Shown piece by piece: positions 50 through 12,524 of a stretch of DNA of 14,396 nucleotides. The stretch lies in the NCBI GenBank assembly GCA_005191425.1, contig SUPR01000088.1:1-14396 (forward strand), written 5' to 3'. Source of the DNA: Candidatus Helarchaeota ASGARD archaeon Hel_GB_B (GTDB taxonomy: Archaea; Asgardarchaeota; Lokiarchaeia; Helarchaeales; HEL-GB-B). Each line of letters starts with the position of its first letter. Positions within the stretch are counted from its first letter, which is position 1. The position numbers were made by a program, and so were the translations under genes. Under the pieces are notes generated by a model, which was not told where the DNA came from, did not search any database, and was given only the letters and a program-made list of their open reading frames with translations.

Positions 50-775
50 ATGGAAATACCAAATGTTCAAATTTATCCATTAGCTGTTTCAAAAATAATT
101 AAACACAGCATTTTAAGTCCAAATAAAGAAATAGCTGGTTTTTTAATAGGTTATGTTAATAACGAAAATAAATTGATAATTACAGATGCACTACAAGGAA
201 GGCAATATGGAAATTCGGTCCATGTTATTATTGAAGATATAGAATTAGCTAAAGCAGCAGAAAAACTTGAATCATTTGGACTAGAAGAACAAATAGTTGG
301 TTGGTATCATTCACATCCAAATATGGGCGCGCATTTTTTTTCCATGACTGATGTAGCTACACAAAATAGATATCAGATGTTTTTACCACAAGCAGTAGGG
401 TTTGTTATTGACACTTCTAAATTTCAAAGGTCAAGTGATCTAAATAATCTTGATTTAAAATGTTGGAAAGTAATAGGAAATCAAGCCATTAATATAGAAT
501 ATAATATTATTACTGATCCAACTGAATGTTTAAATAATATATTATCACATTCTATTAATTATCCGCCATATATCCATGAAATTTCACCCCTAATTAGTAT
601 GTTAATCTCTCAAATTGGTGGAGCACTTGAAAAAGTTGAATACGTCCCAAATATTATTAAAAAAGTAGGAGCATCAATGACCATAAATGGAACATATAGC
701 AATAAAATCTTGATACAGACTTTAATATTAGGAATGTTTATTTTATTTACAGTTCTATTTTTAATTAAATTATAA
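50..775 (+). CDS. MPN+/JAMM (Mov34/Rpn11/CSN5-like) zinc metallo-isopeptidase with a C-terminal transmembrane anchor
   Basis: KEIAGFLIG (catalytic E27) and VGWYHSHPNMGAHFFSMTD (H87, H89, S98, D101) match the JAMM motif; the following DVATQ..YQ....AVGFVID resembles Rpn11/CSN5. The last 22 residues (ILIQTLILGMFILFTVLFLIKL, nt 707-772) are hydrophobic. Confidence 0.9.
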   Translation: MEIPNVQIYPLAVSKIIKHSILSPNKEIAGFLIGYVNNENKLIITDALQGRQYGNSVHVIIEDIELAKAAEKLESFGLEEQIVGWYHSHPNMGAHFFSMTDVATQNRYQMFLPQAVGFVIDTSKFQRSSDLNNLDLKCWKVIGNQAINIEYNIITDPTECLNNILSHSINYPPYIHEISPLISMLISQIGGALEKVEYVPNIIKKVGASMTINGTYSNKILIQTLILGMFILFTVLFLIKL

Positions 776-7630: not shown

Positions 7631-10600
7631 TTATCTTGCAATAAGTAACGGTGCTTTCTTTAATGGTAATCTGAAAATAAATTTAGTCCCTTTTCCAATC
7701 CCGTCGGATTCTACCCATATTTTTCCTTTGTATGAATCCACGATTTTGTAACAAATAGTAAGTCCTAGTCCCATACCTTTTTTATTTAATGCTCTACTTT
7801 CTTCCAATTTTCCAAATCTTGAAAATAATTTAGGAATATCACTTTTCTTAATTCCGATTCCATGATCAATAACAGAACAAGTCCAATTATCATCATCAAT
7901 TTTAGATATAATTTCAATTTCGCTATTATCATAAGAGAATTTGATTGCATTGGATATTAAATTTCGTAATAACCGAAGTATTTGTTCTTGATCGAAAACA
8001 ACTTCAATATCAGGGAGATAAATGTCCTTAATACGGAGGTTCTTTTTTTCTAATTCTACTTTAAAATCTTTTTTAAGGATATTAATGATTGTACTTACCC
8101 TAAATCTATTGTTTTTCAAAATTATAACATTAGCTTTTAATTTATAATAATTGAGAATTTCATTAATAAGGTTCTCTAATTTTTTTGCATTTCGATAAAT
8201 AGTTTTTATATCTTCTTTCTCTTCATTTGATATATTTTTTGATTTCAATAATAATTCAGAGAATCCTTTTATTGCTATAAGAGGTGTCCTGAATTCATGA
8301 GCTGCATCTGCAAAAAATTCATCTTTTAATTGGTCTATTTTTTTCAATTCCTCATTTTGGGCGCGAATTTGTTCTAAAAGTTGGTTCCGCTCTTTTTCTG
8401 CGATTTTACGTTCCGTAATATCCCGAATAATACCTATAGCTGCCCATTTTCCTTTAATTTTTAATTTTGAAACAGATAATTCAATAGGAATAGAATTTCC
8501 ATCCTTCTTAATTGCGACTAATTCTAATGGTTTGCCAAAAACTCGGCCTTCGCCACTCTCTACAAATTTTTTAAACATTTCCTTAAATTTTTTATAACTT
8601 TTTGGAGGAGCAAGGATTTTATGTAAATCTTTTCTATAGATTTCATCAGCTGAATATCCGAAAATTCGTTCAGCTACCGGATTCCAGAAATTAATTAAAC
8701 CATTATGGTCAATTGTAATTATTGCATCAGCAGCAGAATTCGAAATAGACCTGAATTTTTCTTCACTTTCTTTTAAACTTTGTTCATATAAATGTAATTT
8801 TTGTTCAGCCTCAATTCTTTCAGTTATGTCCCTTGAAATTACAATCAATTTTTCTTTACCGTCAGAATCAATAAATTTTCTACCACTTGATTCAAGCCAC
8901 CGATATTCACCTGACTTTTTTCTGAACCTTAATTGAGTTTTCCATATACCAGTCTTTCTAAATTCATCAGTAGCTTTTTTCAAAGTATTATAATCATCTG
9001 GATGAATAAATTTAATAGGAGGTTGACCAATTATTTCATCTTTTGTATAACCAGTTAATTTATAATATACTTGACTGTTAATAAATTCATGTTCCCATTT
9101 TTCGTTATAAATCGCAATCAAATCATTAGCATTTTCGGTTATTAAACGATATTTCTCTCGAGATTCTTTTAATTGTTGTTGAATGATCTTTACACTGGTA
9201 ATATCTTGTAGCCAGACCCTTGTCTTTACTTTTTTACCATTCTGAAATTTGTCGATTTTTTTACCATAGACCCATTTTATATTTCCATCTTTATTAATGA
9301 GTCTAAATTCAATTATTCGTTCACTACATCTATCTGATGAATTTTTCCCTTCTTTTTCGCTAACAGTTTCAAAAAGTTTCTTACGATCTTCAGAATAAAT
9401 TAATTTTATAAACGAATCCATTTTATATAATTCTTCAAAAGAATATCCAGTAAGTTTTGACATTTCTGGATTTATATATGAAATTTGACTATTAACTAGG
9501 TCGACTTCGATTATAGCAACGGGTGCAGTTTCTAAGATATCCCGGAGATATAATTCAGATTTTTGAAGTTTTGATTCAGCTTCTTTTTTTTCTGTTATAT
9601 CATTATATACTGCTACTATTTCACCCGTACTTAATTTATATACAAAATTCTCACGCCAAGAGGCACGCATTCTATTATCTTTATATAAATTAATTGGATA
9701 ATTCTCAGATTTTCCAGTTTTCCAAACGCGTTTAAATACATCTAATAATCCAAATTCTTTTATTCCAGGAAAAACCTTTGTGACATCTTTACCAATAATA
9801 TCTTCCCTTTTAATATTTTCTATTTTCTCAGCCATAGAATTGAAATCTTTTATAATAAATTTGTTTCCATTGTCCTTTACTTCATAGATTGCTACCCCGC
9901 TGGTCATTTTTTCAAAAAGGTTTCTATACTTCTCTTCAGAAACAAGTAATTTATTTAAAACTCTATTTTTTTCCGTTCTATCAATCATTCCTATAAAAAT
10001 AGCTGGAGAACCATTGAAATTGATTTTTCTAAAGAAAAGATCGACCCATTTAATTTGATTTTTATGCGTAATAATTTTATAATTCGGAATTTTATAATTA
10101 TTTGTTTGTTTTGCTAAAAATGATTCAAATTGTTTTTTAATTTGACTCGACTTTTCGTAATCTAATTTATCTAACAAATTTATTATAGAATATTTCTTAA
10201 TTTCTTGCATAGGATATTTAATTAGGTTCAAAAAAGTTTTGTTTGCATAAACAATATATTCATCCTGAAAAATTCCAATTCCTATAATTACATTTTCAAT
10301 TATATACCTGAAATCTTTGGTCGATGAATTTAGGTCATAAGCGATGTTTTCAATTTTCTTTTCTAAAAAGAAGTTGTTTTTAATTAAATCTCTATTAAAA
10401 TTATTAAAAAGATAAATAGATATTAATGCAAAAATAGACCCGAAAAAATATACAAATCCAATAATAATCTGATTTATCTCATAATAACCACACAAAACTA
10501 AAAAAACATTAAGCAAATATCCAACCGAAAAAAAAGCGGTCAATACAGTAAGTATATAATAATATTTTTTAATTTTTAAATTTTTGATTTTCGTTAATAT

Positions 10601-10681
10601 TTTAATTTCTAACCCAGTAGCGAATAAAAGAAAAATAAAGCCTAAAATACTGCAAATGATACAAGTCAAACAAAAATTCAT
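7631..10681 (-). CDS. Membrane-bound multi-PAS sensor histidine kinase (3 TM, 5 PAS, HisKA, HATPase_c)
   Basis: Three N-terminal hydrophobic helices; five PAS/PAC units ending IDRTEK, NDITEKK, QDITSVK, RDITER, RDITERK; H-box FFADAAHEFRTPL, N-box LLRNLISNAIKFS, G1 VIDHGIGI, F-box LFSRF, G2 GMGLGLTIC. No receiver domain. Confidence 0.95.
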   Translation of the reverse strand: MNFCLTCIICSILGFIFLLFATGLEIKILTKIKNLKIKKYYYILTVLTAFFSVGYLLNVFLVLCGYYEINQIIIGFVYFFGSIFALISIYLFNNFNRDLIKNNFFLEKKIENIAYDLNSSTKDFRYIIENVIIGIGIFQDEYIVYANKTFLNLIKYPMQEIKKYSIINLLDKLDYEKSSQIKKQFESFLAKQTNNYKIPNYKIITHKNQIKWVDLFFRKINFNGSPAIFIGMIDRTEKNRVLNKLLVSEEKYRNLFEKMTSGVAIYEVKDNGNKFIIKDFNSMAEKIENIKREDIIGKDVTKVFPGIKEFGLLDVFKRVWKTGKSENYPINLYKDNRMRASWRENFVYKLSTGEIVAVYNDITEKKEAESKLQKSELYLRDILETAPVAIIEVDLVNSQISYINPEMSKLTGYSFEELYKMDSFIKLIYSEDRKKLFETVSEKEGKNSSDRCSERIIEFRLINKDGNIKWVYGKKIDKFQNGKKVKTRVWLQDITSVKIIQQQLKESREKYRLITENANDLIAIYNEKWEHEFINSQVYYKLTGYTKDEIIGQPPIKFIHPDDYNTLKKATDEFRKTGIWKTQLRFRKKSGEYRWLESSGRKFIDSDGKEKLIVISRDITERIEAEQKLHLYEQSLKESEEKFRSISNSAADAIITIDHNGLINFWNPVAERIFGYSADEIYRKDLHKILAPPKSYKKFKEMFKKFVESGEGRVFGKPLELVAIKKDGNSIPIELSVSKLKIKGKWAAIGIIRDITERKIAEKERNQLLEQIRAQNEELKKIDQLKDEFFADAAHEFRTPLIAIKGFSELLLKSKNISNEEKEDIKTIYRNAKKLENLINEILNYYKLKANVIILKNNRFRVSTIINILKKDFKVELEKKNLRIKDIYLPDIEVVFDQEQILRLLRNLISNAIKFSYDNSEIEIISKIDDDNWTCSVIDHGIGIKKSDIPKLFSRFGKLEESRALNKKGMGLGLTICYKIVDSYKGKIWVESDGIGKGTKFIFRLPLKKAPLLIAR

Positions 10682-10864: not shown

Positions 10865-11932
10865 TTAATATTTTAATTTAGGTGATTTATTCAAAAGTAA
10901 ACATTTGTCCTTTTTTACAATTAAAGTATCTTCAATTCTGACTCCACCAAAATCTGGAAGATAAATACCGGGTTCGATGGTTATCACATTATTTATTTCT
11001 AATTTATTATTATTTCTAAAGGAAATAATAGGGTCTTCGTGGACTTCTAGCCCAACTCCATGACCTAAAGAGTGGTTAAAATATTTACCGTAATTTGCGC
11101 TTGTAATTATAGACCTAGCTATATTATCTAGTTCATTTGCTTTTAAGCCGGATTTACAACGCCGTTCAGCTTCTTCTTGAGCGTGGAGGACAAGGTTGTA
11201 TATCTCTTTTTGTTTTTCAGAGGGGGTCCCAACAATTACTGTTCGACTTGTGTCTGAAACATAGCCAGAAAATTGAGCGCCTAGGTCGATAATAACAAAA
11301 TCGCCTTTTTTAATTTTATGCTTAGTTGTTGTTGCGTGAGGAAATGCAGATCTTATACCTGATGCAACTATTGTATCAAAAGGTATTGGTTCAGAACCAT
11401 TCTTACGCATTTCGTATTCTGCGAGAGCAGCGACTTCAAGTTCGCTTATTCCATCTCTAATTGATTCAATTGCTTTTTCCATACCAATATCTGCAATTTT
11501 TGCGGCTTCTTTTAAGAATTCTAGTTCATCATCTGTTTTAGTTTTCCTTAATTTTTTTATCATTGATTCTTTATTTAGATATTCAATTTCATGTGAATAT
11601 TTAGTTAGGTCATCATAATCCTTTTTTGTCAAATAATCTTCTTCTATTCCAATTCGTTTCAATTTTAATTTATGTAATACCCTTGAAATTGCTTCAATTA
11701 CTAGTTCTTGAGCTGGAATTTTTTTTACGAGACAATTTTTAGCAACTAACTTAGCTTCTTCATATTCTAATTCCGGGACAAATAGAAGCGGAGTTCCTTG
11801 CGATTGCACAATTAATCTTGCTATGGATTGCGTAATAAAGCCTGTAAAATATTGAACATTTATTGGATTGTATATCAAATAAGCATCAATGTCATTTTCT
11901 TGAATTTCAGATTGGAGAATTTCTATTTTCAT
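10865..11932 (-). CDS. pepQ: Xaa-Pro dipeptidase/aminopeptidase P (M24B, prolidase-like)
   Basis: Creatinase-like N-domain; FDTIVASG.RSAFPH, IDLGAQFSGYVSDTSRT, HSLGHGVGLEVHE, TIEPGIY, GGVRIED metal-ligand motifs. The track start at 11941 is GTG; the ATG at 11932 is preferred. Overlaps the 3' end of maf. Confidence 0.93.
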   Translation of the reverse strand: MKIEILQSEIQENDIDAYLIYNPINVQYFTGFITQSIARLIVQSQGTPLLFVPELEYEEAKLVAKNCLVKKIPAQELVIEAISRVLHKLKLKRIGIEEDYLTKKDYDDLTKYSHEIEYLNKESMIKKLRKTKTDDELEFLKEAAKIADIGMEKAIESIRDGISELEVAALAEYEMRKNGSEPIPFDTIVASGIRSAFPHATTTKHKIKKGDFVIIDLGAQFSGYVSDTSRTVIVGTPSEKQKEIYNLVLHAQEEAERRCKSGLKANELDNIARSIITSANYGKYFNHSLGHGVGLEVHEDPIISFRNNNKLEINNVITIEPGIYLPDFGGVRIEDTLIVKKDKCLLLNKSPKLKY

Positions 11933-12524
11933 TTTGATCACTTTTTACCATTAATTTCCAAATATCGATATTTAAGTTATTCAACAATGTATAGAATTTA
12001 AAAATCGGAAACCCCATTACATTAAAATAACAACCATCAATTTTTTCAATAAATATACTGGCTAAACCTTGAATTTTATATGCTCCAGCGGCGTCATAGG
12101 GTTCATTGGTCGATATGTACCTTTCAATCTCTTCATTTGAAATTTTTCTCATTTTAATTGCAGTTTTTTCAAATCCAGATATTTCCTGGTATTGATTAAT
12201 ATTTTTTATAATAGCTAATCCTGTATAGACATAATGAATTCTATCAGATAATTTTAATAATATTTTTCTTGCATCTTCTTTATTCAATGGTTTACCAAAT
12301 ATTTTATCAGAATATACAATTGTGTCTGCTCCAATAATAATACCTTTCTTCCTTTTTGAAATAGTTCTCGCTTTTATTAATGCAATTTTTCTAACGAATT
12401 CTTCAGGAGAAAGATTTTCATCTAATTTTTCATTAATGTTAGGAGGAAGGACTATATGAGATATATTTATTTGATTTAAAAGTTGAGACCTTCTAGGACT
12501 TTTACTTGCAAGAATAACTTCCAT
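11907..12524 (-). CDS. maf: Maf family nucleoside-triphosphate pyrophosphatase
   Basis: ILASKSPRR, NE, KA, GADT (catalytic D67), GKP, H.VYTG, AGAY.IQG, I.GCYFNV.GFP. Confidence 0.95.
   Translation of the reverse strand: MEVILASKSPRRSQLLNQINISHIVLPPNINEKLDENLSPEEFVRKIALIKARTISKRKKGIIIGADTIVYSDKIFGKPLNKEDARKILLKLSDRIHYVYTGLAIIKNINQYQEISGFEKTAIKMRKISNEEIERYISTNEPYDAAGAYKIQGLASIFIEKIDGCYFNVMGFPIFKFYTLLNNLNIDIWKLMVKSDQNENRNSPI

Follow-up and report, generated by a model that had tools for sequence, protein, structure and literature searches.

The window analysed here, a stretch of 14,396 nucleotides from a Helarchaeota genome, opens with a gene that encodes a JAMM metalloprotease domain followed by a hydrophobic C-terminus, which raises the question of whether this archaeon edits ubiquitin directly at its membrane. 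To our knowledge, the JAMM deubiquitinases characterised so far are all soluble and are brought to membranes by partners. The reading that we favour, as a reasonably probable one, is that the protein is an Rpn11-type zinc isopeptidase, fixed in the cytoplasmic membrane by a C-terminal transmembrane helix and acting on the organism's own ubiquitin. On this reading, the cell would trim or remove ubiquitin at the inner face of its membrane, and no JAMM-family deubiquitinase before this one would have carried a transmembrane anchor of its own. The open-access full texts searched (including PMC6043591, PMC5654768, PMC11188069, and bioRxiv 2023.07.25.550441) do not describe any archaeal JAMM or Rpn11 with a transmembrane anchor.

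The open reading frame proposed in the preliminary description proved to be real and yields a protein of 241 residues, which comprises the following parts:

50..775, + strand: complete gene for the predicted tail-anchored, Rpn11-like JAMM protein (241 aa, stop codon at 773-775), from the ORF list and translation
50..514, + strand: MPN/JAMM catalytic domain, residues 1-155, from Pfam JAB, the PDB sequence search, AlphaFold2 (AF2), and Foldseek
128..130, + strand: codon of the catalytic Glu27, invariant in alignments A1 and A2 and within the predicted ubiquitin interface
200..238, + strand: Ins-1 segment, residues 51-63, by alignment to the Ins-1 of CsRpn11 and ScRpn11
308..316, + strand: His87-Ser88-His89 zinc-binding motif (HSHP), by invariance; His87 and His89 lie within the predicted interface
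341..352, + strand: Ser98 to Asp101 of the JAMM motif; Ser98 and Asp101 are invariant, and residues 98-101 lie within the predicted interface
518..631, + strand: two C-terminal helices, residues 157-169 and 172-194, from AF2 secondary structure, at the position of H4/H5 of CsRpn11
641..691, + strand: low-confidence, variable tether, residues 198-214, with pLDDT below 50
701..769, + strand: predicted C-terminal transmembrane helix (tail anchor), residues 218-240, from a Kyte-Doolittle (KD) value of 2.63 and an AF2 helix

The identical 241-residue protein is recorded on 13 contigs, whose sources include ENA, JGI, NCBI, and Logan. The flanking genes encode MmeI-type restriction-modification, GFO/IDH oxidoreductase, cyclophilin-like, AAA_18, and inositol-1-phosphate synthase proteins, and Rfam and tRNA scans found no RNA genes in the window.

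The catalytic domain belongs to the JAMM/MPN+ metalloproteases. Residues 5-113 match the Pfam family JAB (PF01398) with an E-value of 2.8e-18 and a score of 66.3 bits (cut-off 22.5). The JAMM set reported earlier as complete is indeed intact: E27, H87, S88, H89, S98, and D101 are all invariant in a 7-sequence orthologue alignment (A1), and E27, H87, H89, S98, and D101 are likewise invariant in a 45-sequence alignment (A2). The best matches in the PDB sequence search were the CsRpn11 entries 6fjv and 6fju (E 2e-27; 2.2e-27 for 6fjv), followed by yeast Rpn11 (5e-14) and CSN5 (3e-10). The CsRpn11 alignment spans residues 5-141 with just two single-residue gaps, and the previously noted Ins-1-like segment aligns with the Ins-1 of both CsRpn11 and yeast Rpn11. 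The AF2 model of the catalytic core has a pLDDT above 96; in Foldseek, which returned at least 292 matches at E <= 0.001 with the best 50 all being MPN proteins, ranks 1-5 are occupied by CsRpn11 (TMt 0.82-0.89). Judged by sequence and model, the enzyme is of the CsRpn11 type, its predicted fold being nearest to CsRpn11, Rpn11, and CSN5. The window protein is a predicted zinc isopeptidase, for which we infer the activity and substrate, as well as the insertion route and topology, discussed below.

CsRpn11 of Candidatus Caldiarchaeum subterraneum (PDB 6FJU, 6FJV, 6FNN, 6FNO) is a soluble monomer of 202 aa, is encoded inside a Ub-E2-E1-RING operon, and was experimentally shown to process ubiquitin; the role of Ins-1 and the helices H4/H5 were described in the same study, and CsRpn11 itself has neither Ins-2 nor the lid-docking elements (Fuchs et al., 2018, PMC6043591). 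The window protein shares with it the catalytic set, Ins-1, the absence of Ins-2, and two helices past the core. It differs in being ~40 residues longer and in ending in a conserved predicted transmembrane helix, unlike a soluble cytosolic enzyme, and its gene lies outside a Ub-E2-E1-(RING) operon, away from all ubiquitin genes.

Assignment to the Rpn11/CSN5 type, as the preliminary description had it, holds for the fold and has to be narrowed to the CsRpn11 type. Eukaryotic Rpn11 (PSMD14) and CSN5 share with the window protein the MPN+ fold, the JAMM motif, and Ins-1, and in the model discussed below the same groove takes the ubiquitin tail. Unlike these proteins, which are soluble, the window protein lacks Ins-2 as well as the N-terminal lid helix and the long C-terminal helices used for bundling, and no MPN- partner adjoins its gene. 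Since Ins-2 and the N-terminal helix that anchors eukaryotic Rpn11/CSN5 in the lid are missing, it is not a lid-type subunit. In the MPN tree, the eukaryotic proteins group in a clade of their own (99*), which excludes the window protein, and the relation of the archaeal clades to eukaryotic Rpn11/CSN5 is left open at the basal forks. The same features bear on a quite improbable alternative, namely that the protein might serve ERAD-like membrane-protein quality control together with Cdc48/PAN and the 20S proteasome, rather than ESCRT sorting or precursor maturation. Its homology to Rpn11, which strips ubiquitin at the proteasome, speaks for such a role, and by analogy a membrane location would adjoin such substrates; however, the three missing elements are those that dock Rpn11 into the lid, and no unfoldase or proteasome gene was found nearby in any locus examined.

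The protein had also been proposed to be either a membrane-tethered deubiquitinase or a desampylase. The former is partly supported, by the motif, the fold, the conserved tail, and the pathway genes, whereas the latter is disfavoured: the NCBIfam desampylase model NF041370 gives 21.8 bits, where the cut-off is 130. The similarity to PfJAMM1 (5lda) reaches an E-value of 0.22 only.

What follows the catalytic domain was initially regarded as a ~70-residue linker, of which only residues 198-214 are modelled as disordered. Residues 157-194 form the two helices listed above, with pLDDT values declining from 90 to about 71-75. D156, just ahead of the first helix, and C160, N163, and H167 within it are invariant among the close orthologues of A1. 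Conserved columns are absent from A1 at residues 198-214, where the length is variable.

The C-terminus carries a single hydrophobic helix, as claimed. The top 19-residue KD window (2.63) falls within residues 220-239, no other such window before residue 216 exceeds 1.0, and AF2 predicts a helix at 218-240 (pLDDT 84-92), after which one residue remains; the transmembrane assignment was made from hydropathy and AlphaFold only. The absence of a signal peptide also stands, the KD scan having found no hydrophobic N-terminus. The protein has the properties of a tail-anchored protein, i.e., one predicted transmembrane helix <=~30 residues from the C-terminus, none elsewhere, and no signal peptide. 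A strict form of this pattern fits 8 of the 2438 ORFs of at least 150 aa in the same genome (0.33%), two of them being the window gene and its copy on contig C48.

The tail is retained by orthologues while its sequence drifts. It is present in all six close orthologues (46-53% identity) and in 5/7 genomes of the order Helarchaeales; of the 30 best loci in a sample of 201 Asgard genomes, 29 have it. Since it is conserved, it is not a frameshift artefact. Among the 173 best-scoring MPN cores, 44 are tail-anchored and another 30 are bitopic. The combination of JAMM domain and tail anchor is the common form of the enzyme in many Asgard families and is not unique to this genome. The distribution is nonetheless uneven. 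Family f30, which belongs to the same order, has a soluble form of 297-302 aa, and some lineages can therefore do without the anchor; two families of the same class (f2 and f3) are missing a close orthologue, with only weak matches in 2/40 and 1/3 genomes, respectively. The bitopic form (JAMM, transmembrane helix, ectodomain) was not recovered from 61 genomes of the same class at E <= 1e-20.

These data also bear on the possibility, in our estimate a very slight one, that the C-terminal helix is buried in a protein-protein interface, for example in a helical bundle, and that the protein is soluble within a complex. Rpn11 and CSN5 do assemble bundles by their C-terminal helices (PMC6043591), and the call of a transmembrane helix has the basis given above. 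However, the uncharged stretch of the tail-anchored homologues (median 24 residues) extends to the final residue in 57/73 of them, with tail KD values of 2.0-3.2. The free drift of the sequence with hydrophobicity kept fits a lipid-facing helix better than a specific interface, and the sister clades contain both bitopic and polytopic membrane forms.

Membrane anchorage being the preferred reading, the helix would anchor the enzyme in the cytoplasmic membrane, from which the catalytic domain would reach into the cytoplasm on a tether of ~60 residues. Because there is no signal peptide and a single residue follows the helix, post-translational insertion is expected, probably through the genome's GET3/TRC40-like ATPases and Get1/EMC3-type insertase. 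The GET3/TRC40/ArsA family TIGR00345 is represented by four proteins above the cut-off, and one EMC3/TMCO1/Get1-type protein is present.

The remaining components anticipated by the preliminary description, i.e., ubiquitin, E1, E2, RING, and ESCRT genes, were all found as well. A cluster on contig C128 encodes a UEV-Vps23 protein, a RING finger (27.0 bits, just under the cut-off of 27.3), ubiquitin, an E2, a Ub-fused E1, and two Snf7 proteins. The ubiquitin precursor ends in GG-SPKN. There is no JAMM gene in this ubiquitin-ESCRT cluster, and the window gene, which is located on another contig, has no adjoining ubiquitin, E1, or E2 gene. In favour of a link to ubiquitin, a related membrane-bound JAMM of 522 aa, with the order JAMM, transmembrane helix, ectodomain, is encoded inside a JAMM-ubiquitin-E2-E1 operon on another metagenomic contig (L083), on which an actin gene is also found. 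The window protein is a concrete candidate for the missing deubiquitinase of the cluster, and would place a step of ubiquitin maturation or removal at the membrane. Its most likely substrate is the organism's eukaryote-like ubiquitin: the enzyme would cut the SPKN extension after the Gly-Gly of the ubiquitin precursor, and would strip ubiquitin from proteins located at the membrane, e.g., cargo of the neighbouring ubiquitin-ESCRT pathway or its components.

When residues 1-160 were modelled together with zinc and the ubiquitin precursor, the complex scored 0.87 and the best control 0.01; this mark is attained by 58/80 solved complexes and by 2/110 mismatched pairs. The runs share at least 92% of contacts, and the partner pLDDT is at least 90. 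The modelled ubiquitin tail (residues 70-81) lies on E27, Ins-1, H87, H89, and S98-D101, with Ins-1 residues 56-61 contacting ubiquitin residue 75. Since the CsRpn11-Ub and Rpn11-Ub complexes have been solved, the high score may show likeness only.

The choice of ubiquitin as the substrate has to be weighed against a conceivable though unlikely alternative, in which the enzyme is membrane-anchored and active on another modifier or a non-ubiquitin substrate, such as another ubiquitin-like protein (Ubl) or the C-termini of membrane proteins. The separation of the window gene from the ubiquitin genes is in line with this alternative, as is the presence of several Ubl and E1 genes in the genome: the repertoire comprises six ThiF matches and three ubiquitin-family matches, and includes a Ubl ending in GGS on contig C90, a UFM1-like cluster on C20, and a Bil-like operon. 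About six further JAMM proteins appear active; one of them, a soluble protein of 147 aa encoded on C17 with an E2 gene 0.9 kb away, could mature the ubiquitin in place of the window protein. In other Asgard classes (Baldr-, Odin-, and others), moreover, the orthologue is found beside two proteins of unknown families, of ~400 aa and ~260 aa, and not beside ubiquitin genes. On the other hand, within its own genome the window protein is the closest relative of the ubiquitin-specific CsRpn11; other modifier systems have their own adjoining JAMM (on C20, the JAB gene adjoins ThiF), whereas the canonical ubiquitin cluster has none; the desampylase score is far under the cut-off; and the complex model with ubiquitin is confident, though it may reflect solved complexes of homologues.

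A new observation is that the two-gene partner cassette of the other Asgard lineages was not recovered here: blastp and profile searches found neither the ~400-aa nor the ~260-aa gene in the genome under study, nor were they found in the 43 same-class genomes sampled. The search for the ~260-aa partner is effective, since the same profile matched 84 of the 201 genomes of the phylum.

The nearest functional analogy to ubiquitin removal by a membrane-anchored JAMM enzyme is provided by AMSH, AMSH-LP, and Sst2, which are JAMM deubiquitinases acting at membranes in a ubiquitin-ESCRT setting. AMSH is recruited to membranes by contacts of its MIT domain and SBM with ESCRT proteins and has no transmembrane helix. 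Its similarity to the window protein is weak and confined to the core (E 4e-5 to 1e-4), and the window protein lacks both the MIT domain (Pfam finds MPN families only) and the linkage-selecting, zinc-binding Ins-2. Cytosolic catalytic domains held by one transmembrane helix, as predicted for the window protein, are known in USP19, which has a tail-anchored ER isoform, and USP30, which has an N-terminal anchor in mitochondria; these are unrelated, papain-like cysteine enzymes of the USP fold, known only from eukaryotes, whereas the window protein is an archaeal zinc metalloprotease.

The ubiquitin and ESCRT genes of Asgard archaea are thought to be the source of the eukaryotic sorting and degradation systems. 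A rather doubtful extension of the present analysis is that the anchor is ancestral in the Asgard Rpn11-like deubiquitinase, and that soluble Rpn11, CSN5, AMSH, and BRCC36 descend from a tethered enzyme after loss of the anchor. If so, the archaeal forerunners of eukaryotes would at first have removed ubiquitin by a membrane-bound activity tied to ubiquitin-ESCRT sorting, with the anchor lost upon recruitment into lid-type complexes. The enzyme is small and the same genome supplies its own GG-SPKN ubiquitin, and therefore the central claims are checkable by ordinary biochemistry.

The copy on contig C48 (P0003) is 53% identical to the window protein. Its reading as a paralogue is unsafe and was rejected, because C48 repeats the upstream gene order (AA kinase, M20 peptidase, OTCase, 137-aa ORF, ~265-aa ORF, GFO/IDH, JAMM), a genome of the same genus (G206) has a single copy of the JAMM gene, and the contamination of the genome bin is 4.9%. 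The C48 copy more likely belongs to a co-binned related population.

The JAMM gene (positions 50-775, plus strand, 241 codons) is encoded in a window that represents an entire contig, C172, of a bin of 3.54 Mb and 182 contigs (93.7% complete, 4.9% contamination). A JAB/MPN domain is recognized at residues 5-113 of its product (Pfam; E 2.8e-18, 66.3 bits versus a cut-off of 22.5). The complete catalytic JAMM set announced in the preliminary description (E27, H87, H89, S98, and D101) was found as claimed, and its residues do not vary among seven close orthologues or across an alignment of 45 more distantly related sequences; the protein is almost certainly an intact enzyme. The seven close orthologues also share C138 (464-466), D156 (515-517), C160 (527-529), and H167 (548-550) without exception, whereas these four residues vary in the wider family. 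An AlphaFold2 model obtained with the 45-sequence alignment as input (mean pLDDT 88) contains the following segments.

Residues 1-155: MPN core (pLDDT > 96)
Residues 157-169 and 172-194: two post-core helices
Residues 198-214: low-confidence stretch
Residues 218-240: C-terminal helix (pLDDT 84-92)

Thus, the linker of ~70 residues described previously is, in this model, mostly a helix pair that is shared with CsRpn11, the Rpn11 homologue of Candidatus Caldiarchaeum subterraneum, and only ~17 residues form a flexible tether.

The sole strongly hydrophobic stretch of the protein is its extreme C-terminus (Kyte-Doolittle mean 2.63, residues 220-239), whereas the N-terminus is not hydrophobic, which agrees with the proposed C-terminal helix and lack of a signal peptide. 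The identical protein is recorded on 13 contigs (those displayed originate from ENA, JGI, NCBI, and Logan), and an assembly frameshift as the source of the tail is therefore excluded. Nor is the tail lost in the close orthologues: all six (242-251 aa, 46-53% identity over the alignment) retain a hydrophobic C-terminal helix, the sequence of which drifts, with only I226 and F230 invariant. An orthologue was found in each of the seven genomes of the same order; the tail is present in families f1 and f29, and a soluble form of 297-302 aa takes its place in family f30. The f30 orthologues (loci L120 and L121; genomes G204 and G203; proteins P0022, P0025, P0028, and P0034) have the same MPN core, with the tether and transmembrane (TM) helix swapped for a soluble C-terminal extension of ~130 residues, and represent a natural anchor-swap usable as a comparison.

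Profile matches at E <= 1e-15 were obtained in 93 of the 201 sampled genomes of the phylum, and 29 of the 30 best loci encode a tail-anchored product. A profile search over 1.84 billion representative proteins yielded 2910 matches. The 173 best-scoring MPN cores (166 from these matches and seven from the same genome) comprise 44 tail-anchored, 30 bitopic (JAMM domain, one TM helix, and a large C-terminal ectodomain), 4 polytopic, and 91 soluble proteins. The source names of the anchored members include Helarchaeota, Baldrarchaeia, Odinarchaeota, and Promethearchaeota, and their annotation is only Mov34/MPN/PAD-1 or RPN11. An uncharged stretch (median 24 residues) reaches the last residue in 57 of 73 anchored homologues; a tail-anchor-like pattern occurs in only 8 of the 2438 larger ORFs (0.33%) of the AT-rich genome that contains the window. 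The tail is real and selected, and both the architecture and its conservation are well established. The C-terminal helix very probably serves as a membrane anchor, and its use as an interaction element that does not anchor the protein is highly improbable. No description of a TM-anchored JAMM or Rpn11 in archaea was found in the open-access full text searched. The protein is an anchored variant, from Helarchaeales, of the known Rpn11-type enzyme kind.

Among solved structures, the closest relative by sequence is CsRpn11 (6fjv/6fju, E 2e-27), followed by yeast and human Rpn11 (~5e-14 to 3e-12), CSN5 (3e-10), and then BRCC36 and AMSH. CsRpn11 structures also occupy the top Foldseek ranks (TM-score 0.82-0.89 on the target). 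The desampylase option is disfavored: JAMM1, the desampylase of archaea, gives hardly any match (E 0.22), and the score obtained with the NCBIfam desampylase model is 21.8 bits, the cut-off being 130. CsRpn11, a soluble monomeric enzyme of 202 aa, processes both the precursor and the conjugates of the ubiquitin from its own operon; neither Ins-2 nor the elements that dock eukaryotic Rpn11 into the lid are part of it (PMC6043591). Since its alignment with residues 5-141 of our protein contains only two single-residue gaps, the latter has Ins-1, as originally suggested, and is devoid of Ins-2. The Rpn11/CSN5-type assignment of the preliminary description is narrowed to the CsRpn11 type. A proteasome- or Cdc48-coupled quality-control role appears improbable. 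In a quick maximum-likelihood tree of the 173 MPN cores, the protein belongs to a starred clade of seven anchored proteins nested in a group of 67 rows (support 92), 39 of which are anchored. Bitopic proteins make up most of a separate clade (100*), and eukaryotic Rpn11 and CSN5 group together in a clade of their own (99*); because its basal forks lack resolution, the tree permits no statement of ancestry.

The genome check proposed earlier revealed ubiquitin, E1, E2, RING, and ESCRT components. A ubiquitin-ESCRT cluster on contig C128 of the bin comprises the following proteins, the first four of which are encoded at positions 58414-61708 (loci L013 and L018).

UEV-Vps23, 258 aa
RING finger, 76 aa (27.0 bits, just below the Pfam cut-off of 27.3)
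Ubiquitin, 82 aa, with SPKN after Gly-Gly
E2
Ubiquitin-fused E1
Two Snf7 proteins

A second ubiquitin-like protein (Ubl), with the C-terminus GGS, is encoded on contig C90 (3399-3653). The genome has nine MPN matches, all of them outside C128, and hence the protease required for the tail of the ubiquitin precursor must be encoded on another contig. Two proteins are candidates for this step: the window protein, which is closest to CsRpn11, and a soluble 147-aa JAMM on contig C17, located ~0.9 kb from an E2 gene; other MPN genes accompany other systems, e.g., a divergent MPN gene adjoining a ThiF-type E1 on contig C20. With respect to tail-anchor insertion, four proteins exceed the GET3/TRC40/ArsA family cut-off, and one protein is of the EMC3/TMCO1/Get1 type.

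An operon and a complex model provide direct hints of ubiquitin as a target of membrane-bound JAMMs. A JAMM-ubiquitin-E2-(Ub-E1) operon on a different metagenomic contig (L083:3425-7117) begins with the gene for a bitopic JAMM of 522 aa (N-terminal MPN domain, one TM helix, and a large ectodomain at the C-terminus); actin is encoded on that contig as well. The ~30 bitopic JAMM proteins form a well-supported clade of their own. The complex of residues 1-160, zinc, and the ubiquitin precursor of the same genome was modeled with a score of 0.87, the highest value among three controls being 0.01. Of 80 solved complexes, 58 attain this mark, as do 2 of 110 mismatched pairs. Contact agreement between runs is at least 92%, the partner pLDDT is at least 90, and the ubiquitin tail (residues 70-81) is placed along E27, Ins-1 residues 56-61, H87, H89, and S98-D101. 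Since CsRpn11-Ub and Rpn11-Ub complexes are already solved, this result may only reflect likeness to them. Ubiquitin is the favored substrate, with reasonable likelihood, and another Ubl or a non-ubiquitin substrate is rather unlikely.

The observation made in the preliminary description is confirmed and its interpretation is supported in part, function and location being inferred. The protein would be synthesized in the cytoplasm, its C-terminal helix would be captured by a GET3-like ATPase, and insertion would proceed via a Get1/EMC3-type insertase. The MPN domain would be kept on the cytoplasmic face, tethered by the two helices and ~17 flexible residues, where it would trim the ubiquitin precursor, remove ubiquitin from membrane-proximal conjugates, or both. 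This chain as a whole is somewhat more plausible than not. The protein is proposed as a built-in counterpart of AMSH, which serves eukaryotic ESCRT sorting, and an anchored JAMM is of interest with regard to how ubiquitin signaling at membranes arose.

No ubiquitin-system genes were found near the JAMM gene, either in the window or on the longer contigs with the identical protein. The gene order on the latter is a GFO/IDH oxidoreductase, an MmeI-type restriction-modification gene, JAMM, and a convergent cyclophilin-like gene located one base past the JAMM stop, followed by a 64-aa ORF, an AAA_18 kinase-like gene, and inositol-1-phosphate synthase. This order is repeated in two other Helarchaeales contigs (L078 and L079), one of which (L079) lacks the MmeI gene. 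The 95 bases upstream of the JAMM gene are very AT-rich with TATA-like words, which fits a putative promoter of its own.

In other Asgard classes, two conserved proteins of ~400 and ~260 aa that match no Pfam family precede or neighbor the anchored JAMM:

L082:5923-8660: tight three-gene operon of both genes and JAMM
L080:4575-6566: Baldrarchaeia-type locus
L081:3334-5331: third cassette locus

Neither was found in the genome under study by blastp and profile searches. This cassette is not an obligatory partner of the anchored enzyme, since none of the 43 genomes sampled from the same class has the ~260-aa family (the same profile matches 84 of 201 genomes of the phylum) and since family f8, in which 42 of 43 genomes encode the ~260-aa partner, is without a close anchored JAMM.

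A second anchored copy (P0003, 244 aa, 53% identical) is encoded on a 7-kb contig of the bin (C48:5786-6520, plus strand, locus L085), the gene order of which duplicates the region upstream of the window JAMM gene. Its interpretation as a paralogue was rejected as unsafe, and C48 was probably co-binned from a related population, because the gene order is repeated, the same-genus genome has one copy only, and the same JGI sample contains more than one Helarchaeales population, several in all.

Other genes at the locus are as follows.

L009:7164-9905, just 5' of the window start: MmeI-type restriction-modification gene, 913 aa
1215-1409, minus strand: 64-aa ORF, no Pfam match
7631-10681, minus strand: cytoplasmic histidine kinase, 1016 aa, with multiple PAS, HisKA, and HATPase_c domains
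10865-11941, minus strand: M24 Xaa-Pro peptidase
11907-12524, minus strand: Maf nucleotide pyrophosphatase

The MmeI-type gene is an inserted defence gene; it separates GFO/IDH from JAMM here and in L078 and is absent from the syntenic L079 and from C48. The Helarchaeales loci L009, L078, and L079 each have a predicted gene of 64-65 aa in the position of the 64-aa ORF; a 335-bp intergenic stretch follows this ORF, in a region of ~20% G+C. The position of the histidine kinase is conserved in related contigs. The Maf and M24 genes overlap by 35 bases and probably form one transcription unit.
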